Source: a virus. Taken from it: a stretch of DNA of 64,000 nucleotides. Made by a program: the position numbers and the translations under genes. Positions 25-13,965 of the stretch are shown piece by piece. How positions within the stretch are numbered: position 1 is the first letter of the stretch; every line of letters starts with the position of its first letter. Under the pieces are notes generated by a model. It did no database searches. It was not told the origin of the DNA and saw nothing but the letters and a program-made list of their open reading frames with translations. The stretch covers positions 1 to 64,000 of the IMG/VR virus record IMGVR_UViG_3300032289_001637. The stretch is one strand, 5' to 3'.

Positions 25-1014
25 ATGGCAGATGCAGTTGAAGTTATTAACGGTGTTGGTTCTATGTATTCATTTCGTGAACCTGCTTGGCATGGTCTAG
101 GAACTGTTGTTACAGAAGAACACACCACAAGTGAAGTCATGGACATAGCACACTTATCAAATTGGAATGTACGTCTTGAAGATGTTCAACTACCTGAGGA
201 TTACACATCAAGCAAATCTAACTTTCTTGTTGTTCGTGACCACCCAGAAGACGGACACCCAGATGTTCTAGCAGTTGTTGGTGAGCGTTACCAGACTTTA
301 CAGAATGAAGAACTATTTGCTTTTGCAGATAATCTTCTTGACGGTGCTCGTTGGGAAACCGCTGGTTCTCTAAAGAATGGTCGTGTTGTATTTGGTTCTC
401 TTGCTCTTGAGCGTGAAACCGTACTTGACCCAAGTGGAGTTGCAGATGTTGTGAAGTCTTACTTACTTGTAAACACATCACATGACGGTTCTCTTGCTGT
501 TCGTGCATCCGTAACACCTGTTCGTGTTGTGTGTGCTAACACTCTTGACATGGCTCTTCGTGGTGTTAAGCAGTCTTTCAAGATGCGACACACATCAACA
601 CTTGAGGGTCGTATCTTAGTTGCTCGTGAAGCATTGGGTCTTGCCAATACTTACATGGATGCTTTTGATAAAATGGCTCAAGAACTTATTGAAAAGGAAA
701 TCACAAAAGATACTTTCAATAAGATTGTTGAAAAGGCTTATCCAATGCCAAGCAAAGATGCAAAGGGTGCTATGACCAAGTGGGAAACCAAGATTGAATT
801 GTTAGATGAGATTTTTGCATCAGACACAAATTCAATGATTAACAATACCGCTTGGGGTGCTTTTAACACATTGACTGAAAGACTTGACTGGTATCGCTCT
901 GCCCGTAATGGCAACAACGAGGGAATCCTTGCAAGTGCATCAGGCTTTGACCCAGTTATCACAGCAGAAAAAAATAAGTTGCTTTCCATTGTAAAGGAAG
1001 TCGCTTTCGCCTAG
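25..1014 (+). CDS. DUF932 family phage/plasmid protein (TIGR03299-like)
   Basis: REPAWHGLG, ETAGSL, NTSHDGS and TPVRVVCANT motifs typical of the family; AAGGA SD upstream. Confidence 0.85.
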   Translation: MADAVEVINGVGSMYSFREPAWHGLGTVVTEEHTTSEVMDIAHLSNWNVRLEDVQLPEDYTSSKSNFLVVRDHPEDGHPDVLAVVGERYQTLQNEELFAFADNLLDGARWETAGSLKNGRVVFGSLALERETVLDPSGVADVVKSYLLVNTSHDGSLAVRASVTPVRVVCANTLDMALRGVKQSFKMRHTSTLEGRILVAREALGLANTYMDAFDKMAQELIEKEITKDTFNKIVEKAYPMPSKDAKGAMTKWETKIELLDEIFASDTNSMINNTAWGAFNTLTERLDWYRSARNGNNEGILASASGFDPVITAEKNKLLSIVKEVAFA

Positions 1015-1071
1015 TAGGACAAAACCGAACGGAAGAAACTCCTACAGCCACGGAGAATAAATAAAGGGGAC

Positions 1072-1106
1072 AGTCCTGAGCACCATACCCAGACTATAAA
1101 CTGCTC
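1072..1106 (+). ncRNA. Putative H-type pseudoknot element, copy 1 (expanded loop)
   Basis: AGTC/GACT stem; loop GAGCA complementary to TGCTC after ATAAAC; followed by a CCCC-TTTC-GGGG hairpin. Confidence 0.55.
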
Positions 1107-1163
1107 CCCTTTCGGGGGCGCAGCCTAGATCCTAGCCAGCTCCTTTATGATTAAGGTAAAAAA

Positions 1164-1185
1164 TGTCAGACCCCTGTGGTATGAT
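1164..1185 (+). promoter_or_regulatory. TGTCAGACC-N4-TGn-TAnnnT promoter, copy 1
   Basis: TGTCAGACC CCTG TGG TATGAT; same spacing in 4 copies. Confidence 0.7.
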
Positions 1186-1215
1186 GAATCATAACCTACT
1201 AAGAAATGAGACACA

Positions 1216-2010
1216 ATGCCAAACTGGGTATTTAACACATTAGTTGTATCTGGCGAACAGTCAGAATTAGATAAAATGGTTGAGCAATTAAATCAACCTT
1301 TTGTAAAACATTTTCCTGAACACAAATTTGAAAATGGTGAAATTGTTTGGGTTGCTGATGAACAGCACTATGACAATCCTGTCTTTGCTTTTTGGAACAT
1401 TGTAAAACCAACCGACCTTGAAGCATACTATGAAAGAGATACTTTCAAAGGTAATAAGAACATCAAGGTAAATGAAGATGGCAAAATGGACGGCGAATCT
1501 TTTATGCAAGAGTTTGTTCGCTCTATGAAAGAAGACCAAGACTGGTATCATTGGAACTGCCGTAACTGGGGAACTAAGTGGGACGTATCAGTTTCTAATG
1601 ACAATCAGTATCCAAACACTATTAAAACAGTTAATGATGATGGTTCTATCTTGTACCAATTTGAAACCGCTTGGAGTCCTGTTGGTGAGGTTCTAATGAA
1701 ACTATCAGAACAATACCCAACTCTTAACTTTGACTATGAGTATGAGGAAGAGCAAGGCTGGGGTGGTGCTTGTACATTCTTAGGTGGAGAAGACATTGCC
1801 TGTTATGAGTATGATTCCCCAATGTCTCACGCTGACCACAAGGAACGAGATAAAGAATGTATCTGTGAGTATGGAGACCCTGAAAACGGGTATGAAGATT
1901 GCCCTGTGGATACCACTAAATTCAAGTGGGATTCAGAACTAGAGGAATGGGTAGAATTGTCAGACCTCTCTGATACACTAGTTTCAACAACCAACCTACA
2001 AGGAGAATAA
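1216..2010 (+). CDS. DUF1281/YubB ferredoxin-like domain protein
   Basis: MPNW start, DWYxWN..NWGTKWD and FETAWSP motifs. Confidence 0.8.
   Translation: MPNWVFNTLVVSGEQSELDKMVEQLNQPFVKHFPEHKFENGEIVWVADEQHYDNPVFAFWNIVKPTDLEAYYERDTFKGNKNIKVNEDGKMDGESFMQEFVRSMKEDQDWYHWNCRNWGTKWDVSVSNDNQYPNTIKTVNDDGSILYQFETAWSPVGEVLMKLSEQYPTLNFDYEYEEEQGWGGACTFLGGEDIACYEYDSPMSHADHKERDKECICEYGDPENGYEDCPVDTTKFKWDSELEEWVELSDLSDTLVSTTNLQGE
1958..1979 (+). promoter_or_regulatory. TGTCAGACC promoter, copy 2 (inside the 3' end of the preceding CDS)
   Basis: TGTCAGACC TCTC TGA TACACT. Confidence 0.65.
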
Positions 2011-2011
2011 A

Positions 2012-2512
2012 ATGGACGTTCAACTTCCAGAAACAAATGCAACATTCGTTAAAGAAATGGTAGAGGCAGGAGAACTTAAGCCTCTCTACGACCCAAAGGC
2101 AACCATTGTTGTCCGAAAGGGTTACTACTACGGTACACCGTCAGACTCAAAGTTTGAACTAGAAAATGCAGACGACATTTCAAGAGCATTCTGGAGAGTT
2201 GATTCGCTTACAGAAACTAACAACAGATTTTCAAGGTCACTAGACAAGTTAAAAGATTATCTTGTTGAGAACTTTGATGAGATTGGTGAAGAACACGCAA
2301 CTGAAATTGCAAGCATCTTTAGCATTGACTTATCTAAAGAAGTTGAAGTTGAGTTTAATGTAACAATCAAAGCAACTATCTCTATGCCTGTCAACGAAGA
2401 TGTGTCTGACTTAAGTATCTATGACTTTGACATCACAATTGAATCAAATGAATCTAAGTATGAGATTTTAGATTCTGATGCAGACATTGATTCGATAGAT
2501 GAAAGATACTAG
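2012..2512 (+). CDS. Acidic hypothetical protein
   Basis: 166-aa ORF with AAGGAG SD. Confidence 0.75.
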   Translation: MDVQLPETNATFVKEMVEAGELKPLYDPKATIVVRKGYYYGTPSDSKFELENADDISRAFWRVDSLTETNNRFSRSLDKLKDYLVENFDEIGEEHATEIASIFSIDLSKEVEVEFNVTIKATISMPVNEDVSDLSIYDFDITIESNESKYEILDSDADIDSIDERY

Positions 2513-2532
2513 GTTTATCTAGTAGGTAGGTA

Positions 2533-2562
2533 AAAGTGCTGAGCATCACTTTAAACTGCTCA
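2533..2562 (+). ncRNA. Putative H-type pseudoknot element, copy 2
   Basis: AAAGTG-CTGAGCAT-CACTTT-AAAC-TGCTCA. Confidence 0.65.
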
Positions 2563-2649
2563 CTCAAGCTGCGCCCCCCCATTTAATAAGTCTATTAGTC
2601 TTAATATATGATTAAGAAGACATGAAAAAATCCCCAAGCCGTGCAAAAT

Positions 2650-2671
2650 TGTCAGACCCTTGTGATAGGAT
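2650..2671 (+). promoter_or_regulatory. TGTCAGACC promoter, copy 3
   Basis: TGTCAGACC CTTG TGA TAGGAT. Confidence 0.7.
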
Positions 2672-2700
2672 ACAAGTATCAGCCTACGAAAAGGAAAGTA

Positions 2701-2868
2701 ATGATTGACACAACAAATCCTTTGCTAGAAAAATTAGCATTTGAGATAGCAGACCTACACAATGTTGGTGGCATTGAATTAGAACAATGGCAAACTGCTT
2801 ATGAATTTGTAAAGCATTTTTATCATACAGAAGAAATGGTTCAGATAGTTATTAGGGGTAAAAAGTAA
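2701..2868 (+). CDS. Small hypothetical protein
   Basis: ATG 2701 with AAGGA SD; TAATG coupling to the next gene. Confidence 0.65.
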   Translation: MIDTTNPLLEKLAFEIADLHNVGGIELEQWQTAYEFVKHFYHTEEMVQIVIRGKK

Positions 2869-3125
2869 TGACATACTTAGTAGCAACAACAGAAGTAATT
2901 TATCAAGAAGCAGATTTAATAAAGATGATGTTAGATACAGGTGAGTATGGTATTCATGGACACCCAATTAGCCATGAGGCTATGGTTGAGTTTGTTAAAG
3001 ATCAAGAATGGCAAATAGAACATAATTTATTCCTTGACAAATTTGATGTACCTTGCCAGATTTCAATTAAAGATGAGGACGGCACAGACCTATTCTTTGC
3101 CAAGAACAGAGTGGAGATAGTGTAA
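2868..3125 (+). CDS. Hypothetical protein
   Basis: ORF coupled by TAATG on both sides. Confidence 0.7.
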   Translation: MTYLVATTEVIYQEADLIKMMLDTGEYGIHGHPISHEAMVEFVKDQEWQIEHNLFLDKFDVPCQISIKDEDGTDLFFAKNRVEIV

Positions 3126-3370
3126 TGAAACTAAGAGGAATCTTTGAGGGAACTTTTGAATCTGTATGGAGTATGGAAGTACCACAAGCAGAGTGGGACT
3201 CTTATCTAGAACTACACCCTGACTTTGACGAAAATGATCGTGACGACATACAAGAGATGTGGGAACATTTCAAGAGCATTGGTTGTTATGATGAGATTGA
3301 CGACACGGTAGACACAGATGTAATTATGACAGGTATAGAAACCTATGGAGTAGAAGTGGAGATCAACTAA
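3125..3370 (+). CDS. Highly acidic hypothetical protein
   Basis: TAATG-coupled 81-aa ORF, D/E rich. Confidence 0.7.
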   Translation: MKLRGIFEGTFESVWSMEVPQAEWDSYLELHPDFDENDRDDIQEMWEHFKSIGCYDEIDDTVDTDVIMTGIETYGVEVEIN

Positions 3371-3576
3371 TGATGCCCTTGTATTGGTATGATGTAGAGT
3401 TTGTATTTGAACACATGGTTATCATTGTTAATACTGGATTTCCTGAACCGCCAGATGAGCAAGATGATGAAAAGGCGTTTGTAATTGAACAAGCAACTAA
3501 AGAACTAATGGCTAACTATAAGATAGACCCAGCAGTCTTGTTTGTGCAAGACATAATCGTACACGAGTGGGAGTAG
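3370..3576 (+). CDS. Hypothetical protein
   Basis: TAATG-coupled ORF. Confidence 0.65.
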   Translation: MMPLYWYDVEFVFEHMVIIVNTGFPEPPDEQDDEKAFVIEQATKELMANYKIDPAVLFVQDIIVHEWE

Positions 3577-3577
3577 T

Positions 3578-3709
3578 ATGTTGATGAACAAGGTCAAGTG
3601 CTGTATGTGTGACGCTACATTTCTAGAGTATGAAGATGAAATGGCATTTAGTTGCATAGAGTGTGGCAAGGAAGATTATCTAATGGATTTAGGAGAAGTA
3701 GAAGTATGA
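3578..3709 (+). CDS. Small Zn-ribbon-like protein (43 aa, not in ORF track)
   Basis: MLMNKVKCCMCDATFLEYEDEMAFSCIECGKEDYLMDLGEVEV; CxxC..CxxC; ATGA overlap with the next gene. Confidence 0.6.
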   Translation: MLMNKVKCCMCDATFLEYEDEMAFSCIECGKEDYLMDLGEVEV

Positions 3710-3939
3710 GCAATCAATACCATTGGGTAGTTGTGTATGACGAAGATTGGGGAGCCTTTATGGTAGACATAGAAACAACTATGGCAAAGCTTTCAGAAGA
3801 GCAAGGTGTTGTTTACAACAAGGATAGTGGAAAGTGGGAGTTTATGGAAGAAGGCTCTGAACTACATTTAGAGTATTTGAGGCTAGAAGAAATCCTGGCT
3901 TATAACCTAACACGTCTTGACTTAACAGAGAAAGTGTAG
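3706..3939 (+). CDS. Hypothetical protein
   Basis: Start MSNQYHW at the ATGA overlap, AGGAG upstream. Confidence 0.7.
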   Translation: MSNQYHWVVVYDEDWGAFMVDIETTMAKLSEEQGVVYNKDSGKWEFMEEGSELHLEYLRLEEILAYNLTRLDLTEKV

Positions 3940-3945
3940 TAGGAT
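3917..3945 (+). promoter_or_regulatory. Sigma70/HrdB-type promoter with leaderless start at 3952
   Basis: TTGACT-17-TAGGAT-6 nt-ATG. Confidence 0.65.
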
Positions 3946-3951
3946 ACGGAT

Positions 3952-4185
3952 ATGATTACATTACCTAAAGAACTACATTTATCAAGAACTATTACATATG
4001 ATGTTCAGAATATTGCAGAGAATATTTTAGACATGGATATGGAAAGAGACCCAAACAGCGTTACTCTTCAAGAGATTGTTGATTTTATTAAAGACTGGGT
4101 ATATGAAGATTTTGGAACTATGCAAAACTTTACCGTGCGTATGGAAAATGAAGACGGAGAGTATATAGGAGATATCAATGACTAA
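3952..4185 (+). CDS. Acidic hypothetical protein
   Basis: 77-aa ORF. Confidence 0.7.
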   Translation: MITLPKELHLSRTITYDVQNIAENILDMDMERDPNSVTLQEIVDFIKDWVYEDFGTMQNFTVRMENEDGEYIGDIND

Positions 4186-4612
4186 ACTATTAGAAGGCGT
4201 TACAGTAGAATACACACAGACAATACCAACCTCAAAACAAATGCCAGAGTTTTATGTGTGGCAGGAGGGTGCAGAGTCTTATGCAACTATCACATACTTG
4301 GACCGTGTGGTAGAGATAGAACGTAATGGTGAGATGAGTCTAACACTACCAAACTTAGTTAATGGTGAACTTTCAGATGAAGGTGTCACTATTGTGAGAT
4401 ACTCTGACGACTTAGAGGCTGCAGGTATCAACGATGACATTCAGTTGATGCAGTTTATTAAAACTATTAGTAATAGTGGATTTGAAATCTATCGTATGAA
4501 TCCTTGGTGGGAAGTGTTTGCACACAACGAAGATATGGGTGAAGTGTACGACACATTCTACGAAGCAATTGATGCTGGTATTGATCACATTTTAGATGAT
4601 AGGAACTGGTAA
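4178..4612 (+). CDS. Acidic hypothetical protein
   Basis: 144-aa ORF, AGGAG SD. Confidence 0.75.
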   Translation: MTKLLEGVTVEYTQTIPTSKQMPEFYVWQEGAESYATITYLDRVVEIERNGEMSLTLPNLVNGELSDEGVTIVRYSDDLEAAGINDDIQLMQFIKTISNSGFEIYRMNPWWEVFAHNEDMGEVYDTFYEAIDAGIDHILDDRNW

Positions 4613-4767
4613 TGGAAGAATCAGTTAATAGATTTATCAAACATACCGTGCTTAACTTAGAACGAGCATTGGAACTAGATGATGATGAACTAACTCTAGC
4701 AGTCTTAATAAACTTATCAAGTGTGATAGAATCCTATGTGGAGGCGATGCAACTTGAGCGAGTATGA
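4612..4767 (+). CDS. Small hypothetical protein (51 aa, not in ORF track)
   Basis: MEESVNRFIKHTVLNLERALELDDDEL...; TAATG coupled. Confidence 0.55.
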   Translation: MEESVNRFIKHTVLNLERALELDDDELTLAVLINLSSVIESYVEAMQLERV

Positions 4768-4978
4768 AATTATAGATTATCTTCTAATTAACTTTATAGA
4801 GCCTGGAGATTTAATTAATTTTGCAGGTGAAGATTTTAGGGTATTAGAGATAGAACCATCAGATGATGGCTGGATATTAGAGGTGTTAGATAGAATGGAA
4901 GATCAAATAGATTTATTTGTTCCTGATGACTCTGTAATAGCCTTATTATCTGAGGGCATGGAAGTAACAGAACAATAG
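4754..4978 (+). CDS. Highly acidic small protein
   Basis: Probable TTG start with GGAGG upstream. Confidence 0.6.
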   Translation: MSEYEIIDYLLINFIEPGDLINFAGEDFRVLEIEPSDDGWILEVLDRMEDQIDLFVPDDSVIALLSEGMEVTEQ

Positions 4979-4980
4979 AT

Positions 4981-5009
4981 TTGACAATTCCGTCAAAAAC
5001 TGGTAAGAT
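4981..5009 (+). promoter_or_regulatory. Sigma70-type promoter
   Basis: TTGACA-17-TAAGAT with TG extension. Confidence 0.7.
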
Positions 5010-5040
5010 AAATAACAAGGTAACTCTTAAGGAGAGAACT

Positions 5041-5202
5041 ATGACAAGAGAGCAAATGCGTACTCTAAAGAAGCAACGTTTCACGTCACTAGAAAAGTGG
5101 GGCGACACAGAGCGTGTAGTAATTCGTGATGGTCTAGGACATTTTGTACATAACACAAACCTAACATCACTACGCCGCAACAAGGTAGTTAAGTCCCGTT
5201 AA
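5041..5202 (+). CDS. Small basic protein
   Basis: ATG 5041 with AAGGAG SD; contains an RDxLGxF motif. Confidence 0.65.
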   Translation: MTREQMRTLKKQRFTSLEKWGDTERVVIRDGLGHFVHNTNLTSLRRNKVVKSR

Positions 5203-5212
5203 GGCTGGCTGG

Positions 5213-5241
5213 AGGGGCAGGGAAGGTCCTTGCCCCTTTTT
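5213..5241 (+). terminator. Intrinsic terminator
   Basis: AGGGGCA...TGCCCCT stem plus T run. Confidence 0.7.
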
Positions 5242-5262
5242 GTCAGACCTTAATGCTAGAAT
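5241..5262 (+). promoter_or_regulatory. TGTCAGACC promoter, copy 4
   Basis: TGTCAGACC TTAA TGC TAGAAT. Confidence 0.7.
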
Positions 5263-5270
5263 GGAATACT

Positions 5271-5486
5271 ATGGGAAAAACACCAAACGAGAAAATAGCA
5301 GACAAACTAATTGCCCTATTTTCAGACAGTAGAATCGGAATCGTAGATTGGCAACACTACATTCCATTTTACATCACACAGCAAAATAAACAAGTTATTT
5401 CAAGTGCTAAAAATCTGGCAGACGGAATAAATGAACAAATTGCTGATAGGGAAATTGGATTAGACAGAGAACAGTTAGGAAAGTAA
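5271..5486 (+). CDS. Hypothetical protein
   Basis: ATG 8 nt after the -10 box. Confidence 0.65.
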   Translation: MGKTPNEKIADKLIALFSDSRIGIVDWQHYIPFYITQQNKQVISSAKNLADGINEQIADREIGLDREQLGK

Positions 5487-5776
5487 TGTTAGACATAAGA
5501 GAAAAAGCAGAGATCATTTTTGAATTCATTAATGACTATCGAGGTGACGAAGCCTTTGAAGATTTCTTTTCATACAATGATTTAGGCGTACCACTTGCGG
5601 TAATGATTGTAAATGATTTAGTTATTCTTAATGAGGGTGGAGTAGAAGTAATTGATGAAACTTGGAAAAATCTTTGTGAAAATCTAAATGAAGCAAACCC
5701 AGAGTATGACTATGAAAGTCTTAATGAACTAATTGAATTGGCTGTTCCTTTTGAAGATCAGGAAGAGCAAGAATAG
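5486..5776 (+). CDS. Acidic hypothetical protein
   Basis: TAATG-coupled 96-aa ORF. Confidence 0.7.
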   Translation: MLDIREKAEIIFEFINDYRGDEAFEDFFSYNDLGVPLAVMIVNDLVILNEGGVEVIDETWKNLCENLNEANPEYDYESLNELIELAVPFEDQEEQE

Positions 5777-5782
5777 TTCATA

Positions 5783-5856
5783 GGGGTGGTAGCTCAGTTG
5801 GTTAGAGCCCTGAACTCATAATTCAGTAGTCGTCAGTTCGAGCCTGACCCACCCCA
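5783..5856 (+). tRNA. tRNA with CAT anticodon (probably Ile2/lysidine type, otherwise Met)
   Basis: Cloverleaf: GGGGTGG/CCACCCC acceptor, GCTC/GAGC D stem, CTGAA-CTCATAA-TTCAG, GTCAG-TTCGAGC-CTGAC. Confidence 0.9.
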
Positions 5857-5965
5857 CCCCACGGGGGCGCAATCTGATAATTTTAATAAATGATTACGAA
5901 CACCCTTATATAACCCCATTTTTTCAATATTTTAAAAATCAAGGAAGAGAGAGTATAATAGTATT

Positions 5966-6493
5966 ATGACTATAGTAATAGGACTCATAGATAATGGTAT
6001 TGTATATATGGGATCAGATAGAGGTATGTCTGATGAATATTCTATATCTTCTCCTATTACCCCGAAAATAAAAAAGAATGGACAATTCTTAATTGGGTAT
6101 GCATCTTCCAGGGGATCAGGACAAGTAGCTCATTACATTGATTTTCCAAATGTATTAAAAAAAGATGTAGATAAATATATGAGAACAGATTTTATATTTA
6201 CTTTGAAGAAAGCTATAGAACCATATGGTATTGATATATCAGATGATGATAAGGCAGCTGCAGATTTTTTGGTGGGAATTCATGGAAGACTATTTCAAAT
6301 ATCTACTAATGACTGGCAAGTAAATGAATATGATAAATATATAGCTATAGGATCTGGTAGTCAATTTGCAATAGGATCTCTTGATACTTCTTATACCTGG
6401 AAAGATCCAAATAAAAAGATTACGAAGGCATTAGAAGTCGCCATAAATAATTCACCTCAATGTATATATCCAATTGATATTTTACATTCTTAA
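5966..6493 (+). CDS. HslV/proteasome-beta-like Ntn threonine protease
   Basis: N-terminal M-T, GSDR and AIGSG motifs; TATAAT 6 nt before the ATG. Confidence 0.75.
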   Translation: MTIVIGLIDNGIVYMGSDRGMSDEYSISSPITPKIKKNGQFLIGYASSRGSGQVAHYIDFPNVLKKDVDKYMRTDFIFTLKKAIEPYGIDISDDDKAAADFLVGIHGRLFQISTNDWQVNEYDKYIAIGSGSQFAIGSLDTSYTWKDPNKKITKALEVAINNSPQCIYPIDILHS

Positions 6494-6606
6494 AAAAGAT
6501 TACGAACCCCCCTAAAAATCCCCCCAGTTTTTGCGGGGGATAAATATTCTTGGTATCAATATCACCTATATAACTATATATAAAAATCTTTAAAAAAGAT
6601 TACGAA
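6413..6606 (+). repeat. AAAAAGATTACGAA direct repeats (6413, 6493, 6593); GATTACGAA also at 5892 and inverted at 7089
   Basis: Read directly. Confidence 0.8.
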
Positions 6607-7272
6607 AGGGCTTAAAAAATGCCAGTTTTTATTAAAATCTATATAGAATTTGCCAGAATATAAACACACCATATACAAGGATTTGACATTACGATTAAGA
6701 TATGATATGCCCTCTCACCCAATTCTCTCCACTATACTCCATTTCTATCCATTATTAATCAATAAATATCATATAATTCATCAGATGTGCTTATATTATA
6801 GTCATTAAAGGCTCTCAGAAGGCTTGTAAGAGACTTTCTTCTGGTTTATATAATCATATGCGAAGCATCATTTAAGACTCTTATATGTCATATAGTTAGT
6901 TATATATATAGTTATGTTTATATAGTGTATATAGTTAATAATCAGAAGATCTTTACTTCCCCCCCGCAAAATTTATAAAGAGGCTTTGCCTCATGTATTG
7001 AATATAGGGGATATTGTTATATATAATATAGTTGCTCATGTTGAGCATGTTTATACTATTTCCGCCGATTTTTTGCGATTTTTTATTTTTCGTAATCGCT
7101 GCCAATAGACTCTATGTATGCTTTTTTCTTCTTCTTATCCCAGGAATATCTAACTACATTTACATAGCAGTTAAGTGCTACGAATGCCAGGATTAGCATT
7201 TCAGCTATTGAGTGTGAGAATTTCATTTTCTATCTTTCTAATTACGAGCGTCTGCCTCCGACTTATATTGTA

Positions 7273-7674
7273 TCAGGAATTGGCTCTTTTGGCAAGTAGG
7301 GAGTCAAAGTCTTTCTTCTTTGTTCCCCCGTCATATTCCCAGGCATAGCCTTCATTAATCATCTTTTCATTAAGGGAAGTGTCTTCATCATTAATAAATA
7401 GCCAGCCTAAAATACGACCATATTTTTCAGAACTGTCTGGCTTTTCTGTTTGAATAATAATGTCTTCTGCATTTTCAAGTAAATGCTTTAGGTATTCTTT
7501 TACTTCTAGACCAAGTGCTTTTTCTCTAAGATCAGTTGTTCTAGATTCAGGAGTATCAATACCCGCCAATCTTACTCTTTGAGTAAAAGATACGTTAAAT
7601 CCAAGATCAATGTCAACATCAATGGTATCCCCATCAACTATCTTTAATACTTTTTTTACACGGTATTCATACAT
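7273..7674 (-). CDS. Thermonuclease (SNase family)
   Basis: VDGDTI, RVRLAGIDTPE, KYGRILG motifs. Confidence 0.9.
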   Translation of the reverse strand: MYEYRVKKVLKIVDGDTIDVDIDLGFNVSFTQRVRLAGIDTPESRTTDLREKALGLEVKEYLKHLLENAEDIIIQTEKPDSSEKYGRILGWLFINDEDTSLNEKMINEGYAWEYDGGTKKKDFDSLLAKRANS

Positions 7675-7706
7675 AACTATTCTATTATATATGTATATTT
7701 CTAAAG

Positions 7707-7779
7707 TCCCCGATAAGAGATTCGAACTCCTGACCTGTAGGGTAGAAACCTATCGCTCTATCCACTGAGCTAATCGGGG
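7707..7779 (-). tRNA. tRNA-Arg(TCT)
   Basis: CCCCGAT/ATCGGGG acceptor, anticodon loop TTTCTAC, TTCGAAT T loop. Confidence 0.88.
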
Positions 7780-7783
7780 ATAA

Positions 7784-7840
7784 GTCAGTTTGCCATGCCA
7801 TTTAACATGTGGGAGTATATGCAACTGACAAACATATACT
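7784..7840 (-). ncRNA. Pseudoknot-like element in the tRNA spacer (possible variant of the dispersed element)
   Basis: AGTATATG/CATATACT stem; loop GTCAG pairs with distal AAAC-TGAC. Confidence 0.45.
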
Positions 7841-7844
7841 GCTG

Positions 7845-7917
7845 CTCCCCAACCTAGACTTGAACTAGGAACATTCAAATTAACAGTTTGACGCTCTGCC
7901 AATTGAGCTATTGGGGA
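7845..7917 (-). tRNA. tRNA-Asn(GTT)
   Basis: TCCCCAA/TTGGGGA acceptor, TCAAA-CTGTTAA-TTTGA, TTCAAGT T loop. Confidence 0.9.
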
Positions 7918-7927
7918 CTATACTGGA

Positions 7928-8056
7928 TTAACGATTTTTAGAGTAACCAGTTTTTCTTTTATTCATAGATCCAGGAGTATTGTATCCACCCCTATTAGGA
8001 ACATTTCTGATTCTAATTTCTAAAGCCTTTGCAACTTTATCGTGATGTTTTCCCAC
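7928..8056 (-). CDS. Small basic protein (42 aa, not in ORF track)
   Basis: GTG start overlapping the upstream stop; MGKHHDKVAKALEIRIRNVPNRGGYNTPGSMNKKK... Confidence 0.5.
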   Translation of the reverse strand: MGKHHDKVAKALEIRIRNVPNRGGYNTPGSMNKRKTGYSKNR

Positions 8057-8244
8057 TACTTTTCTTTCTTAGTAGATTCAACAGTTAGCTTAGAATCTTT
8101 TAGATTTTTAATCTCTTCATCTTTTGCCTGTAGTGCTTCGTTTGCCTGTACCTTTAAAATAGCCATTTGAGTTTCATACTGACTAGTAATCTGACCGATA
8201 CGGTTTTGTAATTCTTGAACTACAAGTTCTAATGTGTTTGACAT
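8056..8244 (-). CDS. Small coiled-coil protein
   Basis: 62-aa ORF, TAATG coupled. Confidence 0.65.
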   Translation of the reverse strand: MSNTLELVVQELQNRIGQITSQYETQMAILKVQANEALQAKDEEIKNLKDSKLTVESTKKEK

Positions 8245-8375
8245 TACATTAACCCCTTTCTAAGGATATTTTCTTTTTCTTTTTCTTTAGACTTTTGGTT
8301 TAATACATATTCTTTAATCTCATTAAGAATAAAAAGGTTTGTTACTAATATTGCTAATAAAATAATCTCAGCCAT
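8244..8375 (-). CDS. Small membrane protein (43 aa, not in ORF track)
   Basis: MAEIILLAILVTNLFILNEIKEY...; fills the gap exactly. Confidence 0.5.
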   Translation of the reverse strand: MAEIILLAILVTNLFILNEIKEYVLNQKSKEKEKENILRKGLM

Positions 8376-8634
8376 TTTCTGGGAATACTCTCTTTAAAAA
8401 AGCAAATTTAGGCTTTGCTCCAATAATACGATCTACTTCTTTTCCATCTTTTAGAATTACATATGTAGGAACTGATTGAATATTATATTGTTCAACCATG
8501 TCTTTGTTAGAATCAATATCAACTCTTGTAATAGTTAAATCAGAATATTCTTTTTCTACTTCGTCAAGAATTGGATTCATTAGTTTGCATGGACCACACC
8601 ATGTAGCCCAGAAATCAATCACTTCTGTTTTCAC
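8368..8634 (-). CDS. trxA: Thioredoxin
   Basis: DFWATWCGPC active site, SVPT cis-Pro loop; GTG start at a GTGA overlap. Confidence 0.9.
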   Translation of the reverse strand: MKTEVIDFWATWCGPCKLMNPILDEVEKEYSDLTITRVDIDSNKDMVEQYNIQSVPTYVILKDGKEVDRIIGAKPKFAFLKRVFPENG

Positions 8635-8798
8635 TTTTTTTCCTTTGTATACTTCCAAGATGCCATACTAAAGTTAGGCTTAAGTTCTTTTTCAATACCT
8701 TCTGCAATGTCTCTTGCTTCTTCCTCACTCTTTACGCTGTAAAAGAATGATCGTCTTGAGCCACTGGGTTCTTCAATAATAACTTTTAATTTGTCCAT
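8631..8798 (-). CDS. Small leaderless protein (55 aa, not in ORF track)
   Basis: MDKLKVIIEEPSGSRRSFFYSV...; TTGACA-17-TAAAAT-6 nt-ATG (8805-8833). Confidence 0.65.
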   Translation of the reverse strand: MDKLKVIIEEPSGSRRSFFYSVKSEEEARDIAEGIEKELKPNFSMASWKYTKEKK

Positions 8799-8840
8799 AT
8801 CTAGATTTTACACCATATCCTTTGTTTTGTCAAGTTTAAA

Positions 8841-8869
8841 TGAGCAGTTTTAAATCATACTCAGGATTT
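8841..8869 (-). ncRNA. Putative H-type pseudoknot element, copy 3
   Basis: AAATC-CTGAGTAT-GATTT-AAAAC-TGCTCA on the minus strand. Confidence 0.65.
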
Positions 8870-8885
8870 TCATATTTTTTAGCTA

Positions 8886-9326
8886 TTACCAAACATCGTA
8901 ATATTCAACATCTGGTCTAGATTCAATTTTTTGTAAAGCAATATTAAGAAGTCCTTCATCAAATCCAACCCCTCTTTCCATTACTTTAACGTTTTCAGAA
9001 AGAGTAAACTGTTTTTTAAATTTTCTTGAACTAATTCCTCTATGGAGATATGTAAACCCATCTTCAGGCTTTTCCTTGCTTTCTCCACTAATTGTTAGAA
9101 TATTGCCTTCTCTATATACTTTTATTTCATCTTCTTTAAATCCAGCAATAGCTAGATGAATTTCATAATCCCAATCATATTCATTTTCAAGCTTTTGCTC
9201 TTCAGAATATTTGATTACATTATATGGAGGGTATGAAGATTCATTTATCATACTGTTTGCCCTGTCAAATAGGCTTTCAAATCCAATCATAAATGGATTG
9301 ATTGTTGACATAGTTGTACTTACCAT
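8886..9326 (-). CDS. Small heat-shock protein (Hsp20/IbpA-like)
   Basis: YPPYN, LAIAGF, YLHRGI, GLLNI motifs; ATG 9326 with AAGGAG SD. Confidence 0.9.
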   Translation of the reverse strand: MVSTTMSTINPFMIGFESLFDRANSMINESSYPPYNVIKYSEEQKLENEYDWDYEIHLAIAGFKEDEIKVYREGNILTISGESKEKPEDGFTYLHRGISSRKFKKQFTLSENVKVMERGVGFDEGLLNIALQKIESRPDVEYYDVW

Positions 9327-9381
9327 TTTTTTGCTCCTTTTAAGCGAGTTAATTACAGTCCCGTTCGGCAACTGCTAGAAT

Positions 9382-9410
9382 ATTATAGCAAAATATAAAA
9401 ATATTGTCAA
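9382..9410 (-). promoter_or_regulatory. Consensus sigma70 promoter for hsp20
   Basis: TTGACA-17-TATAAT with TG extension. Confidence 0.8.
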
Positions 9411-9418
9411 GTAGAAAA

Positions 9419-9449
9419 TGAGCAGTTTATGGGGTCATGCTCAGGACAC
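9419..9449 (-). ncRNA. Putative H-type pseudoknot element, copy 4
   Basis: GTC-CTGAGCAT-GAC-CCCATAAAC-TGCTCA. Confidence 0.6.
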
Positions 9450-9469
9450 TACTTAGCTAAACTAGTAAA

Positions 9470-10009
9470 TTAATACCAGCCCTTTTTCTTGAATGCACTC
9501 CATGCTCCACAAGGGGTCTCATATCGTTTGTCAATATATTTTAGACCCCATTTGATTTGTGTTTCTGGATTTGTTTTCCAATCTGCCCCTGCACTTGCCA
9601 TCTTACTTCCAGGCAGTGCTTGTGGAATACCATAGGCACTTGAGGTTGGGTTGTCAGCAGTATGCCTCCACCCACTCTCACGATTCCATAAATTCACAAG
9701 GCAAGAGTGCTGGTCTTCGCCCCAAGAGTACTTAGACTCCATGTAGGACTTTGCAAAAGCTTGATTAGTTTTTGCAGCAATAGAGCTTGGTCTATTGGAT
9801 CTAGAAGCTTTTTCATTACTTCTAGTTTTTTCTTTTTTCTTTTCTTTTTCAGATGTTGCAAGTTTAGCAATTTCGATACTTCTATCTTCACTGACTCTAC
9901 TTACTACATTTTGCGGTGCATTAGCACTGGTCTGACTGTGGCTTGTTGGTAGGGATGCAATTGCAAGAACCGCAACAAGGGCAATCGGAACCAAGGTTCT
10001 GATACGCAT
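9470..10009 (-). CDS. Secreted lytic transglycosylase (SLT-like, actinobacterial type)
   Basis: Signal peptide; LWNRESGW catalytic Glu; AYGIPQALPG and NPETQIKWGLKYI motifs. Confidence 0.85.
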   Translation of the reverse strand: MRIRTLVPIALVAVLAIASLPTSHSQTSANAPQNVVSRVSEDRSIEIAKLATSEKEKKKEKTRSNEKASRSNRPSSIAAKTNQAFAKSYMESKYSWGEDQHSCLVNLWNRESGWRHTADNPTSSAYGIPQALPGSKMASAGADWKTNPETQIKWGLKYIDKRYETPCGAWSAFKKKGWY

Positions 10010-10085
10010 CCTTCTAGGATAGCATGAAATAGTGACATAATCAAGTTTTTATTATAACAAAATGATAAATAGTTTTATTAAATAC

Positions 10086-10107
10086 AAAAGCCCCTATTTC
10101 TAGGGGC
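10086..10107 (-). terminator. Intrinsic terminator after the M23 peptidase
   Basis: GCCCCTA/TAGGGGC stem plus TTTT. Confidence 0.7.
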
Positions 10108-10125
10108 AATTGTTAATTTGATAGA

Positions 10126-10515
10126 TTAAGATGCAAGAATCTTAGCAGGATCAATGTCCTTGCCATCACTCCATCTAATGTTATCTCTCATTTCAAAGTG
10201 AAGATGAGGACCAGAAGAGTTGCCTGTATTACCAGACTCTGCAATATGCTGACCCTTCTTTACTACGTCTCCAGCCTTAACTAGAGCCTTTGAAAGGTGT
10301 GCATAGATTACCCAGCCACCTTCAACTTTTTGGACTAGCTGTGTGCCATAGCTGGCTCCCCAGTTAGCATTTTCAATCTTGCCATCAGCAACAGCAACAA
10401 TGTTTGTGCCTTCTTTACAAGCATAATCTACACCTGTATGGTAGCCTTTTGACCACATTTTTCCAAGCTTCTTGTAAGGTGTTGTAACCTTACCTCCAAC
10501 AATTGGTGAACCCAT
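10126..10515 (-). CDS. M23 family peptidase (candidate endolysin)
   Basis: HTGVD, YAHL, GPHLHFE zinc motifs. Confidence 0.9.
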   Translation of the reverse strand: MGSPIVGGKVTTPYKKLGKMWSKGYHTGVDYACKEGTNIVAVADGKIENANWGASYGTQLVQKVEGGWVIYAHLSKALVKAGDVVKKGQHIAESGNTGNSSGPHLHFEMRDNIRWSDGKDIDPAKILAS

Positions 10516-10591
10516 TTAAATCATTTCCTTTTTTTCTATAGAATAAGGGAGTCCTTTGTGGGGACTCCCCTACTATATTATATCCTACTTT

Positions 10592-10906
10592 CTATTCTGC
10601 TTTTTTGTCTACTGAACTAAATGCTGAGTTGATTTCACTTGCACTTAGTTTACCATCATCTAGGAATGCTCTTGCAAGCTTTTCAACAACGGTAGCAACA
10701 CCAAGCGTACCTGCCATAATAACAGCAGTAATGGTATCAATTCCAACTAGGGAACCTGCACCAATAATTGATAGACCAGATGCTGCAAATACTGCAACAA
10801 TTCTGAAGAATATATTCCATAAGTTTGTTACTGCTTTGGAACCAATTATTTCTTCTCCAGTTTCTTTATCAACTATTGTTATGTCTACGTTACTTTTGTT
10901 TGCCAT
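10592..10906 (-). CDS. Membrane protein, holin candidate
   Basis: Two hydrophobic segments; adjacent to the M23 gene. Confidence 0.55.
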   Translation of the reverse strand: MANKSNVDITIVDKETGEEIIGSKAVTNLWNIFFRIVAVFAASGLSIIGAGSLVGIDTITAVIMAGTLGVATVVEKLARAFLDDGKLSASEINSAFSSVDKKAE

Positions 10907-11090
10907 CTTCTTCCTCCTTTTCTTCTCTAAAATTCATTGAGAATAGCCATACAGCTAGTGACCACAATATTGCAAAAGCTACTACTGTTTTAGCACTTCC
11001 CTCTAAAACTACCCAAGCTACAAACATACCAAGAAGGGTAAATGTTTGATTTAGTGTTTCACGAATTTTATCTACTATCCATTTTTTCAT
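10890..11090 (-). CDS. Small 2-TM membrane protein
   Basis: Two TM helices, charged C-terminus. Confidence 0.6.
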   Translation of the reverse strand: MKKWIVDKIRETLNQTFTLLGMFVAWVVLEGSAKTVVAFAILWSLAVWLFSMNFREEKEEEDGKQK

Positions 11091-12637
11091 TATCTCATCC
11101 TCCCTGTTATACTACTTGTTGAAAGTATTTGTGCAGCAATAACTGATGCAACAATTACTTTCTGTGATTCCTCACGTTTTTCTGGTGTCATATCTGCACC
11201 AATATTAGCTACAGCAGTAAGAGCCTTTCCAGGATCTGTAAGTACTGCACCTAAAATTTCTGATGGATTTTCAAATATTTCAAGAGCGTCTGCAACTTCA
11301 GCAAACAAGACTACTCCATTATCAAGCATAACTGGCTGATCATCTGGCAAGTCTTCATAATCAAGACCAAGTTCATCAATTAACTCAATAGATATTGCAT
11401 TACCATCTGCTTGTTCTAAGATAACATCTACAAGCAATTCTTTTTCATCTTCCGTCAAAACTCCATCTTCAGTTAAAGATTCTGAAAGACCAGATACTTC
11501 ATCTTCAGAGATAAATCCATCATTCAAGAAATTATCAATTAACTGTTCTGTCTCAGCATCTGAGATACTGCCACTTTCAGTAAAGTCTTCAACAAATGTA
11601 TTTATTTGTTCACCTGTTGTTTCTGTGATATTATTATCAGATGGAAGATCAATGGATGGAAGATCTGGATCAGGAGATGGACTCTCTTCTGGAATTGGAG
11701 TTAATGATTCTGGAGATGAAATCTCTGGCTCAGGACTTGGGTCTTGAGTTGGCTCAGGTTCTACTGGGGGCAACGGAGATTCTGAGGGAATTAAAGAAGG
11801 GGTTGGACTAGGTGAAGAAGTTTCTGAAGGTTGCACAACAGGTTCTGACGGTTCTGGGCTTGGCTCTGATGGCTGGGGTGACGGCTCTACTGTTGGCTCT
11901 GGTGATTGTGATTGCTGTGGCTCAGGGCTGGCAGTAGGACTTGGCTCAAGTGTTGGCTCAGGTGTTGGCTCAAGTGTTGGCTCAGGTGTTGGCTCAGGTG
12001 TTGGGCTTGGAGTTTCACTAGGAACTACTGGAGGATCTGTAAAGTTTGATGGTGTTGGCTCTGGCTCAACTTCAATTGGAACGCCACCATTAACATCAAA
12101 AGCTGCTTCCATAGGGACAACGGGCTGACCTCTTTCAAACCTTATGGCTCTTCTTGCATCTGCTGGAAGGTCTGTCATTGTAACAATTTCACCATGCCAC
12201 CCACCATTTGAAAACTTAGTTACAACCAATCTCATTTGAGTTAAAGGTCCAGTTGATTGTGGGAATGGTCGAACAGACCACTCTATGCAGAATGAGCTAT
12301 CATTGTATCCGTAAGATGTATAAGCACCTTCTCCAAAAGAAACCCAGTCTTTTCCAGCTATTGATATAGATGGTGTTTGTGGATAGTCCCAATAAGTTCC
12401 ATCTGACTGTCCAAATGTTACAGTTGCGTTGGTGCTATAAAAAATTTGATTGTATTCCGTGCTTCCTAAAGTTAAACTAAAAGGTAAAAGCATTGGAAAT
12501 GATCCATCATCATCTCCAGTAATAGTGGACATGTTACAGACTAATGGAGTGTCTGCTTGGGTAACTGGGGATGCTAAAAACATAGTGCCAATTAGTAATA
12601 TTGGAATTAATAGTAGGTAGGAAAAGATTTTTTTCAA
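11090..12637 (-). CDS. Secreted/surface protein with Pro/Glu/Ser/Thr-rich linker
   Basis: Signal peptide, beta-rich N-domain, PEPT repeats, acidic region, hydrophobic C-terminus. Confidence 0.75.
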   Translation of the reverse strand: MKKIFSYLLLIPILLIGTMFLASPVTQADTPLVCNMSTITGDDDGSFPMLLPFSLTLGSTEYNQIFYSTNATVTFGQSDGTYWDYPQTPSISIAGKDWVSFGEGAYTSYGYNDSSFCIEWSVRPFPQSTGPLTQMRLVVTKFSNGGWHGEIVTMTDLPADARRAIRFERGQPVVPMEAAFDVNGGVPIEVEPEPTPSNFTDPPVVPSETPSPTPEPTPEPTLEPTPEPTLEPSPTASPEPQQSQSPEPTVEPSPQPSEPSPEPSEPVVQPSETSSPSPTPSLIPSESPLPPVEPEPTQDPSPEPEISSPESLTPIPEESPSPDPDLPSIDLPSDNNITETTGEQINTFVEDFTESGSISDAETEQLIDNFLNDGFISEDEVSGLSESLTEDGVLTEDEKELLVDVILEQADGNAISIELIDELGLDYEDLPDDQPVMLDNGVVLFAEVADALEIFENPSEILGAVLTDPGKALTAVANIGADMTPEKREESQKVIVASVIAAQILSTSSITGRMR

Positions 12638-12708
12638 TTTATTGCATAGACTCCTCGTTAGACGTATCTAACAAATCTATTATATCATTGTTAATAAACT
12701 AATTAATA

Positions 12709-12737
12709 TAGACAGTTTTACGACTTGTCTAGGTCGT
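12709..12737 (-). ncRNA. Putative H-type pseudoknot element, copy 5 (covaried in both stems)
   Basis: ACGAC-CTAGACAA-GTCGT-AAAAC-TGTCTA. Confidence 0.65.
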
Positions 12738-12755
12738 TTCCCATCCTAAGGAAAT

Positions 12756-13520
12756 TTATAAATCTCTAGGAGGAATATTTCTATTTTCAACGGCAAGTAG
12801 CTGACCTCTATGCTCTGCTTTTATATCTTTTCTTACCCAAGTCCCACCATAAGTATCTTCAAATACTTCAACACCAACTCTTCTTTTTAATCTTTCAGCC
12901 ATTGATTGGAATGTTGGATCATCACTTAAATGAAGATATGCATTGTGATACCAGGGTAGGTCATAGAATGCAGGAGAATTAACTAAAAGCATAGCTGCAG
13001 TATTCCAATGCTCTTCAATTCTTGGATTATCACAAACAGCTTTTCCTCTTAGTCCATATGCTGGAACATCTGCACTAACAATTGGATGGTCTACTTCAAA
13101 TAACTTTTCAATAAGTTCTGCAGTTAAAACTGTATCTGAATCAACATACAATATTGCATCATAATAAATATAAAAAATTTCTATTGGTCTTTGTGCAAAC
13201 TCTCTAATTAAATTTCTACCAGTTTCAATCCTTATCAATCTATTTTCAGCAGTTACTTGACTTTTCATATCATTTATTGAGTATGTCCAGAAATCTCCAT
13301 TGACTTCCTTTAAACTATTTAAAACTCTTTCAAAAGGTTCTAGACCTCTGCTATCAAGTTCTAATGCAGTAAAGAATTTTGCATTCGGGAATTTTTCAAT
13401 TATTTGTTTTGAGTTTTCAAGCCATGACATTTCCTCACCCATGTCTGCTTTCCATCCTACAAGCGGTGTACCAATAACAAAGTGTTTGTTGTAATCTATC
13501 TCTTTAAACATTGTGAACAC
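12756..13520 (-). CDS. Putative GT-A fold glycosyltransferase
   Basis: GRNL..., ILYVDSD (DxD), SDD motifs. Confidence 0.6.
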   Translation of the reverse strand: MFTMFKEIDYNKHFVIGTPLVGWKADMGEEMSWLENSKQIIEKFPNAKFFTALELDSRGLEPFERVLNSLKEVNGDFWTYSINDMKSQVTAENRLIRIETGRNLIREFAQRPIEIFYIYYDAILYVDSDTVLTAELIEKLFEVDHPIVSADVPAYGLRGKAVCDNPRIEEHWNTAAMLLVNSPAFYDLPWYHNAYLHLSDDPTFQSMAERLKRRVGVEVFEDTYGGTWVRKDIKAEHRGQLLAVENRNIPPRDL

Positions 13521-13965
13521 TCCTTATGTATTCAATTATATCAGAGCAGTAGCCATGATAGTCTAAATATTTTATTTCTTCTATAGTTCTAAATAGTTCT
13601 GGAAGAACTGCAATTGTATTTGAATTTGCTTTTGCAACTCCTGGAAATGCCCAAACAAATCTTTTACTTGTTAAAGTATAATCATCTTGATTGTGAAAAA
13701 AACAATTCAAATCTTCATCAAGAGCATACTTCAAAGACTCTTTATCCTTGCAATGGACCCACAAGCTTTCCCTACATTCATCAATAAAGTTATCATCTAT
13801 TAAATACTGTGGCTTATCGTGACCTAAAAATATTTGTCCATCTTTGTGACGAATATCAATCTCTACATCAAAACCTTTATCTATGGCTTGATAAATATAA
13901 ACTGGACTATTTTCTAGTTCTAGTTTTTTTCCAGTTAAATTTCCACGATGAGATATGTATATCAT
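13504..13965 (-). CDS. GDPD/PI-PLC-like phosphodiesterase
   Basis: SHRGN, EN, DVEIDI, LGHD, WVHCK. Confidence 0.7.
   Translation of the reverse strand: MIYISHRGNLTGKKLELENSPVYIYQAIDKGFDVEIDIRHKDGQIFLGHDKPQYLIDDNFIDECRESLWVHCKDKESLKYALDEDLNCFFHNQDDYTLTSKRFVWAFPGVAKANSNTIAVLPELFRTIEEIKYLDYHGYCSDIIEYIRSVHNV

Follow-up and report, generated by a model that had tools for sequence, protein, structure and literature searches.

What kind of element recurs behind unrelated genes at one end of a lake phage genome, and what might it do there? The window considered here is the first 64,000 nucleotides (nt) of the IMG/VR record IMGVR_UViG_3300032289_001637, a phage genome of 94,158 bp in a single contig with 35% G+C, which originates from lake or freshwater metagenomes and is classified in IMG/VR as linear and ~87% complete. 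A first-pass annotation of the window had pointed to five short elements placed just 3' of genes and had proposed that they are RNA pseudoknots rather than DNA sites. All five are present and can be read directly in the sequence (Table 1), and every copy has the architecture described for them, that is, a first stem (S1), a C, the UGAGCA-like 5' strand of a second stem (S2), one junction base W, the returning strand S1', an (N)AAAC linker and the returning strand S2'. The element is a new, widespread and uncatalogued family having a known type of fold, the compact H-type pseudoknot.

The five copies lie in gaps between open reading frames (ORFs), all within the first 13 kb of the genome, a zone of small ORFs, tRNAs and early-type promoters. 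They are in sense orientation relative to their flanking genes, as the first-pass annotation had it, and start 16-57 nt past a stop codon (about 17-60 nt in that annotation), and the genes upstream of them are unrelated: DUF932, an ORF of unknown function, hsp20, an SLT-like transglycosylase and another ORF of unknown function. S1 differs in each copy while the fold persists, which identifies the RNA structure as the conserved entity. In copy 5, three S2 pairs are exchanged as well, in a compensatory manner.

Fold and covariation

A covariance model (R1) was built with S1 alone as structure from an alignment (A1) of 82 distinct foreign copies and window copies 2, 3 and 5, and the genome was scanned with filters off. 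On the whole 94,158 bp, R1 matches all five elements with E values from 6e-13 to 3e-7, including copies 1 and 4, which are recovered although they were outside the seed, and the next match has an E of 0.07. Since R1 finds nothing further, the genome carries exactly five intact copies, and the covariance-model search that had been suggested as a check thus returns the elements and nothing else above that level. A generic H-type descriptor without sequence words gave ~1225 matches in the genome and was discarded as uninformative, and a looser word-free scan for the family had ~11% false positives, judged on reversed sequence. As the generic descriptor is meaningless, the signal consists of the conserved words combined with covarying stems. 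A scan of IMG/VR with CTGAGCA-N4-20-AAACTGCTC found at least 119 loci, several of them with 3-4 copies, and among the matches listed the gap was exactly 7 nt in 88 of 139. Matches arising by chance would be spread evenly over the gaps.

The pairing of S1 was left free by the search pattern, and its inner three pairs are nevertheless paired in 85/85 sequences of A1, and at two of them each of the four Watson-Crick types occurs; S1 is closed by C-G in 82 sequences and by G-C in 3. S2 was assessed on matches in which it had not been forced, together with an alignment fitted to S1 alone (A4; 110 matches). Its central pairs have 0 unpaired cells despite swaps (GC 97/AU 6/GU 3; AU 95/GC 10; GC 102/AU 4; CG 84/UG 13/UA 5). 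Several S2 variants are recurrent, namely CUAAGCA/UGCUUA, CUGGACA/UGUCCA, CUAGACA/UGUCUA, CUGGGUA/UACCCA and CUGAGUA/UACUCA, the third of which is the form of copy 5 and is seen again in an unrelated locus (L096); a further variant has 7 bp, with a pair inserted on both sides. Covariation scores 0.43, compared with 0.14 in shuffles, of which 0/500 reach 0.43, and when the partner strand is slid, pairing falls from 91% to 21-38%. G.U cells outnumber A.C cells in S2 by 31 to 2, and therefore it is the sense strand that folds.

Covariation of both stems, which the first-pass annotation had read from five copies, is thus seen over hundreds of them, and it extends to orthologous positions. Copy 2 and its ortholog in the relative L023, where the flanking gene end is ~90% identical, differ by a flip of the S1 closing pair from G-C to C-G and by an S2 exchange from A-U to G-C. 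Copy 3 has AAAUC in S1 and UGAGUA..UGCUCA in S2, and the copies behind its hsp20 orthologs (L243, L249-L252) have AAGUC/GACUU and UAAGCA..UGCUUA. Each helix alone is weak (-4 to -6 kcal/mol). The loops measure 1 nt over the 6-bp S2 and 4-9 nt along the 3-6-bp S1, with a one-base junction, and H-type pseudoknot geometry is the established basis for judging such a fit; we infer that both helices can form together as a stacked knot of 11-12 bp. Two covarying helices, the excess of G.U over A.C and the 93% co-orientation described below support a conserved RNA tertiary element, a compact H-type pseudoknot, and not a DNA site for a protein, in agreement with the initial proposal.

One sub-class of the family, represented by copies at other loci, carries the tail AAAAAGGCUCA in place of AAAACUGCUCA; its S2 is shorter by one pair, and it shows covariation of its own (CUAAGCA/GGCUUA).

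Table 1. Positions of the pseudoknot copies and associated features; E values are those of covariance model R1, and coordinates refer to the window unless a locus is named
Feature	Position	Strand	Parts, 5' to 3'	Gene context	Remarks
Pseudoknot copy 1	1072..1107	+	AGTC (1072-1075), C, TGAGCA (1077-1082), L2 of 9 nt, GACT (1092-1095), ATAAAC, TGCTC (1102-1106)	starts 57 nt past stop of DUF932 gene	read from sequence; E 7e-8, outside seed; 9-nt insertion between S2 and S1'; S2 of just 5 pairs
Pseudoknot copy 2	2533..2562	+	AAAGTG (2533-2538), C, TGAGCA, T, CACTTT, AAAC, TGCTCA	starts 20 nt past stop of ORF 2012-2512 (unknown function)	read from sequence; E 6e-13; canonical form
Pseudoknot copy 3	8841..8869	-	AAATC (8869-8865), C, TGAGTA, T, GATTT, AAAAC, TGCTCA	starts 16 nt past hsp20 stop	read from sequence; E 2e-12; one G.U pair in S2; UUU directly 3'
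Pseudoknot copy 4	9419..9447	-	GTC (9447-9445), C, TGAGCA, T, GAC, CCCATAAAC, TGCTCA	starts 22 nt past stop of SLT-like transglycosylase gene	read from sequence; E 3e-7, outside seed; S1 only 3 bp; L3 linker 9 nt; UUUU 3'
Pseudoknot copy 5	12709..12737	-	ACGAC (12737-12733), C, TAGACA, A, GTCGT, AAAAC, TGTCTA	starts 18 nt past stop of ORF 12756-13520 (unknown function)	read from sequence; E 6e-8; S2 variant UAGACA/UGUCUA
Probable decayed sixth copy	1015..1045	+	GTAGGA-N16-AAAC-TCCTAC	directly 3' of DUF932 stop	aligns with intact knot of relative L023
Sigma-70-type promoter	9382..9410	-	TTGACA-17-TATAAT with TG	8 nt past copy 4; drives hsp20	12/12 match
Sigma-70-type promoter	8805..8833	-	TTGACA-17-TAAAAT	7 nt past copy 3	11/12 match
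Variable cassette	8841..9418	-	promoter, hsp20, own knot (copy 3)	upstream bound is copy 4	
Copy with AAAAAGGCUCA tail	L040:3672-3705				
Copy with AAAAAGGCUCA tail	L009:11345-11378				
Copy with AAAAAGGCUCA tail	L009:12069-12102				
Copy with AAAAAGGCUCA tail	L082:4519-4552				
Copy with AAAAAGGCUCA tail	L072:1974-2007				

Gene context, cassettes and distribution

Context statistics were drawn from 263 non-identical copies. Random orientation would have spoken against the structure, but orientation is not random: 135 of the 145 classifiable copies (93%) are co-oriented with the dominant coding strand. With the spacing taken between the last base of the stop codon and the closing C of S1, there are 0 copies at 4-6 nt, 4 at 7, 40 at 8 and 30 at 9, followed by an approximately geometric decay; the first S1 pair never lies 1-3 nt past the stop, and the commonest spacing is 5-7 nt. 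The depositors' own annotations of the cultured phages S-RIM4, Labelle and S-EIVl likewise place the knot 4-12 nt past the end of a coding sequence. The next ORF starts at widely varying distances (median ~110 nt). A same-strand tRNA gene follows at 3-12 nt in 16/260 copies, and in 0/260 copies does a tRNA lie within 30 nt upstream of the knot. In the first two bases 3' of S2', G is almost excluded. Tandem knots occur in the loci L023, L055 and L057.

The window itself has three tRNA genes, at 5783-5856 (+), 7707-7779 (-) and 7845-7917 (-), where the plus-strand module switches to the minus-strand module; none of them is directly preceded by a knot, unlike the tRNA genes of several relatives.

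The long spacing of copy 1 is explained by a probable decayed knot, the remnant of which occupies 1015-1045. The remnant retains ..AAAC-T.. and the flanks and can now form just the GTAGGA/TCCTAC hairpin, and in relative L023 an intact knot stands 9 nt 3' of the DUF932 stop and is followed by an ortholog of copy 1 that is almost identical to it.

That the elements lie upstream of the next promoter, as had been claimed, is clear for copies 3 and 4, behind which a near-consensus promoter begins after 7-8 nt, and less clear for copies 1, 2 and 5. These two promoters set the unit order as gene, knot, promoter, gene, knot. The unit that contains hsp20 is variably present. DNA contigs from two other lake studies (runs X5 and X9) carry a cassette-free junction in which 8850 is joined to 9458/9452 with a single knot left, and in run X5 the depth is 0 over 8980-9383 (hsp20) between deep flanks. 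In IMG/VR, the promoter-hsp20-knot cassette is present in 5 close relatives and missing in ~10, with boundaries exactly between two knots. The knot right behind the SLT-like gene is retained in 36/39 IMG/VR relatives, down to 50% protein identity, and more distant relatives have segments of differing length downstream of it. Genes that some relatives have and others lack are thus delimited by knots, much as by PeSLs in T4-type phages, and the shuffling of genes at knots is most simply a by-product.

Two further observations concern promoters. In the plus-strand module, a motif TGTCAGACC(C/T)... stands at 1164-1178, 1958-1972, 2650-2664 and 5241-5255 (+) and is followed by TGN-TATGAT or TAGGAT; its appearance is that of another type of promoter, with an extended -10 box and use in this module alone. 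Similar words (TTTTCGACCC/TGTCTGACC) are found 3' of knots in the relatives L005, L043, L072 and L082. On the minus strand (8796-8810), 6 nt separate the end of the -10 box TAAAAT from the ATG of ORF 8631-8798, with no visible Shine-Dalgarno sequence, and the message of this ORF may be leaderless.

The family is found in uncultured phages from many environments. Cultured carriers are Synechococcus phage S-EIVl (6-7 copies, one strand), cyanophage S-RIM4 and Mycobacterium phage Labelle (Patience group, one copy), and blastn matches indicate probable copies in Paracoccus phages, Vibrio phages and Lak megaphages. At least 120 bacterial-genome contigs also carry it, from Saccharibacteria (strikingly many), Lactobacillaceae, Nocardia, Polynucleobacter, Bacteroidia, Anaerolineae and others; of the listed contigs that have an exact consensus copy (L120-L239), about one in four is labelled Candidatus Saccharibacteria. 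Whole bacterial genomes hold just 1-3 clustered copies, and the ORFs flanking the Saccharibacteria and Lactobacillaceae loci have no Pfam domain, except for one phage minor capsid protein. The few clustered copies and the capsid neighbour place the bacterial copies in islands or prophages and not in a genome-wide cellular system. In complete Escherichia coli genomes, blastn with a consensus-like copy gave no match, a weak negative, the query being short and S1 variable. A conserved locus from the scan of bacterial contigs has the knot ~20 nt before the GGGAGG-ATG start of a 138-residue ORF without a Pfam domain.

No known family accounts for the element, which the first-pass annotation had been unable to assign to one. 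With Rfam 15 at gathering scores only the three tRNAs of the window pass, and none of the five elements; at E<=10 over 900-13000 no match overlaps any of them. Full-text literature searches found the motif described nowhere, and it is absent from the text of a catalogue of 10,006 candidate viral RNAs (PMC10690425), whose tables, which were not searched, may hold it as an unnamed entry.

The source phage has no near-identical match to 14 kb of the window in a megablast search of phage records. Its DnaE-like polymerase is most similar to those of Streptomyces phages at just 51% identity, so that no close relative in culture is available; this match and the leaderless-type start are hints of an actinobacterial host. 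Beyond the knots, a single ORF of 3243 residues spans 50514-60245 (-) and adjoins one of 1505 residues (45413-49930), both probably giant structural or tail proteins.

Possible functions of the knot

The knot is tied to the upstream stop codon and only loosely to the next gene, it stands before tRNA 5' ends and promoters, and in some phages it occurs in tandem, a pattern that fits a structure of the 3' end of the upstream message. The reading favoured here, tentatively and from context, is therefore that the knot could give this message a mechanically robust 3' cap. Of the functions listed by the first-pass annotation, this corresponds to the first, a 3'-exonuclease block or transcript-end stabiliser. 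The knot would be transcribed as the tail of the message of the upstream gene. Closed by its nearly invariant C-G pair, the S1 of 3-6 bp would be stacked in such a way that the C loop spans the deep groove of the 6-bp S2 and the A-rich AAAC linker runs along the S1 minor groove. Once RNase E/Y (or RNase P, for copies with a tRNA behind them) had cut a read-through transcript further downstream, 3'-to-5' exonucleases would trim the RNA back and then stall at the knot with no protein needed, so that the upstream cistron would retain its stop codon plus a defined, stable 3' end.

The spacing behind stop codons may be understood in the same terms. Ribosome structures and the spacers used in frameshifting establish that 4 nt of mRNA between the A-site codon and the entry channel have to remain single-stranded. 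The lower limit seen for the knot is sharp and equals this length, which suggests that ribosomes open the knot with difficulty and that it is held by selection just beyond their reach at termination; its position would be the nearest to the stop that a terminating ribosome tolerates without unwinding it. The limit also offers a testable in vivo read-out of the downstream footprint of the ribosome. With each gene bringing its own knot, gene-plus-knot units would act as cassettes, and the conserved words at the ends of the units would favour their gain and loss by recombination.

Several points weigh against such a cap. In X20, the only RNA run, contigs at a 0.07 share of words neither bridge the knots nor end at them informatively. 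Terminators are neither enriched nor depleted downstream of knots (4.3% vs 5.4%), and the window spacers of 16-57 nt exceed the family mode. RNase R degrades structured RNA. Ordinary small frameshifting pseudoknots, in turn, do not stall the 5'-3' exonuclease Xrn1 (PMC10321173), and for these two reasons a knot of 11 bp may be an insufficient barrier. Finally, the S2 sequence is identical in ~85% of copies across phages of many phyla, a near-uniformity that mechanics alone do not explain and that keeps the alternatives alive.

A bolder form of the cap, and a somewhat more doubtful one, would be a universal, protein-independent RNA stopper in phages of many phyla, which occupies the nearest site tolerated by the ribosome, shields 3' ends, bounds mobile cassettes and in a minority of copies has tRNA-like CCA ends. 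In prokaryotes it would be the equivalent of the exonuclease-resistant RNAs that eukaryotic viruses carry. Should the message-end reading be right, a fold of 30 nt would be among the commonest functional RNA elements of phage genomes and yet be missing from Rfam and from the papers searched. It would provide a simple rule for the ends of phage messages and for the stabilisation of single cistrons within read-through transcripts, synthetic biology in bacteria would gain a very small, portable tag that stabilises RNA, and the fold would add a structural relative of the plant-virus coremin knot. The cassette polymorphism, for its part, ties RNA punctuation to gene shuffling in the accessory regions of phages.

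Among the alternatives, the knot might mimic a tRNA acceptor arm or act as a processing signal, and RNase P, 3'-trimming or CCA-adding enzymes would then treat the message end as a tRNA end. S2 stacked on S1 would form a helix of 11-12 bp (6 + 5 bp), which fits an acceptor/T arm. S2' is followed by A and sometimes by CCA: this triplet comes immediately after S2' in 18/260 copies (7%) against a background of 1.3% (p about 1e-8, uncorrected for relatedness) and is enriched in copies preceding a tRNA (Fisher p 0.017). The 16 copies that stand 3-12 nt before a tRNA gene occupy the slot of an upstream tRNA in an array. However, 93% of copies and all five in the window lack CCA, knots never come after tRNAs, and the would-be discriminator base is mostly paired with U9 (78/107 rows). 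No tRNA or tRNA-like model matches the element, ARAGORN and Rfam calling true tRNAs only, and mimicry of this kind is unlikely.

A barrier of the opposite polarity, against 5'-to-3' decay by RNase J or other 5'-to-3' enzymes, would shield the downstream RNA in a coremin-like way, and the A-rich linker does reinforce S1, the helix first met from the 5' side. The knot is anchored to the upstream stop, however, and not to the downstream gene. The family is found in phages of hosts from many phyla, some of which lack RNase J. The layout is like that of the Watson-Crick coremin variant (PMC10321173; PMC10520033), but the second hairpin that coremin requires for Xrn1 resistance is no feature of the family: the 45 nt downstream have a mean minimum free energy of -5.5 kcal/mol vs -6.2 in controls, and values of -8 or below occur in 22% vs 28%. 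Together with the failure of plain frameshifter pseudoknots to stall Xrn1 (PMC10321173), this leaves a 5'-to-3' barrier improbable.

The element could also be directed at the mRNA entry channel of the ribosome, where it would modulate termination, block sliding or re-initiation, or promote recoding. Stimulators of frameshifting and read-through use a spacer of 5-8 nt, which matches the spacing of the knot. In most anchored copies the first S1 pair lies 4-8 nt past the stop and in none at 1-3 nt, and knots come after ORFs only, never after tRNAs. Even so, the distribution has the form of a hard lower limit with decay and not of an optimum, the sequence logo has no conserved slippery sequence before the stop, and no frame is open through the knot, which has a UGA in the loop and a UAA in the linker. 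With the window copies 16-57 nt from the stop, too far for contact, an action on the ribosome is no more probable than a 5'-to-3' barrier.

The loop, linker and S2 are conserved far beyond purely structural need, and in size and shape the knot is like the preQ1-I and SAM-II/V aptamers, as a regulatory binding module for a conserved protein or a small ligand would be. Such a module is nonetheless quite improbable, for several copies per genome stand behind unrelated genes, they are anchored to stop codons and not to ribosome-binding sites, no single phage protein partner is evident across phages of so many phyla, and no riboswitch model matches.

Completion of S2 just before a U-rich stretch would suit a non-canonical transcription terminator. 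At least 5 U are found in the 8 nt past S2' in 49/263 copies (19%) against 9 in controls (3%), and copies 3 and 4 have UUU/UUUU behind them, with a promoter next, as in PeSL composites (PMC4122927). The U tract is absent in ~80% of copies, though, S2 alone is weak at -4 to -6 kcal/mol, and many copies lie inside obvious operons, where a tRNA comes 3-12 nt later or the ribosome-binding site of the next gene 10-30 nt later, which makes termination highly unlikely as their task. Canonical terminator hairpins with a U tract do occur in the window, at 10107-10090 (-), 6540-6520 (-) and 5213-5231 (+), at gene ends that have no knot, and a terminator scan of 1-14500 listed none of the five elements.

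Least probable is a DNA-level cassette boundary, a recombination site, folded or not, that mobilises cassettes like integron attC sites or PeSLs. In its favour, the variably present hsp20 cassette has its limits precisely at two knots, segment lengths downstream of the SLT knot vary among relatives and no copy lies outside the accessory region of small ORFs. Against it, S1 differs per copy, which opposes homology-driven exchange, there is no GTTRRRY-type core, no integrase was noticed at the loci inspected (an impression, not a systematic search), the excess of G.U over A.C and the anchoring to stop codons indicate a role in RNA, and shuffling is explained more simply if it merely follows from the short conserved words that gene ends have in common.

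Comparison with known systems

In structure, the knot comes closest to the Watson-Crick variant of coremin, a motif of plant and other RNA viruses, and to the frameshifting knots of luteoviruses. With the former (xrRNA-WCC/xrRNA-C; PMC10321173, PMC10520033) it shares a short C-G-closed hairpin, a first loop of 1 nt, a GAG/CUC core, the ..AAAC.. spacer, a position in the 3' untranslated or intergenic region and, as proposed here, a role as mechanical block. The coremin loop has 4-6 nt of the form YGAD/YGNNAD and 3 S2 pairs (PMC10520033), whereas the loop of the knot is CUGAGCAW with 6 S2 pairs, and the second base of this loop is U, not G, so that it falls outside the coremin pattern. The structure of coremin was unsolved as of 2023 (PMC10520033). 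Coremin also depends on a second downstream hairpin for resistance to Xrn1, which is not a feature of the knot family, and it acts on a eukaryotic 5'-3' exonuclease in eukaryotic hosts; common descent of the two is without support.

The -1 frameshifting knots of luteoviruses and enamoviruses (BWYV type, ~28 nt) are of similar size and are likewise compact H-type folds, in which the first loop is short and begins with C, the junction is a single base and an A-rich ..AAAC linker occupies the minor groove of S1. They have a slippery heptamer upstream and an S2 of 3 bp, whereas the family has a stop codon upstream, an S2 of 6 bp and no continuing frame; a test for frameshift sites found the stop codon upstream and no conserved pattern at -20 to -12.

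Another small H-type pseudoknot, of ~34 nt and with an A-rich tail, is the preQ1-I aptamer (RF00522). No match to it was obtained even at E<=10, and the family is multi-copy behind unrelated genes, with a position set by the stop codon before it and not by the ribosome-binding site after it. The genes next to the window knots (DUF932, hsp20, SLT and unknowns) are unlike the setting of preQ1-I at ribosome-binding sites of the queuosine pathway. The tRNA-like ends of plant viruses (TYMV type) build an acceptor-arm-like coaxial helix through a pseudoknot, and a minority of the copies described here end in ACCA, but the knot is without an anticodon or D domain, has CCA in 7% of copies only and matches no tRNA model. 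Integron attC sites, with their R''/L''...L'/R' boxes, GTTRRRY core and 57-141 bp, differ from an element of 28-36 nt that has no GTT core.

In position, the PeSLs of T4-type phages (PMC2839356, PMC4122927) are closest, as they too are structures at gene ends followed by a sigma-70-type early promoter, in plastic small-ORF regions with variable cassettes. PeSLs are plain G+C hairpins of one lineage, however, whereas the family is a sequence-conserved pseudoknot found across many phyla and often without a promoter; the element works like a PeSL yet is probably not a member. The stabilising hairpins at bacterial 3' ends, such as terminators and REP elements, also stand behind stop codons and have the 3'-5' exonuclease block proposed for the knot, but they are simple, G+C-rich and variable in sequence, in contrast to an 11-bp knot with conserved loops. 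The element is thus a family of its own, which is like PeSLs and terminator hairpins in its position and perhaps like exonuclease-resistant RNAs in its action.

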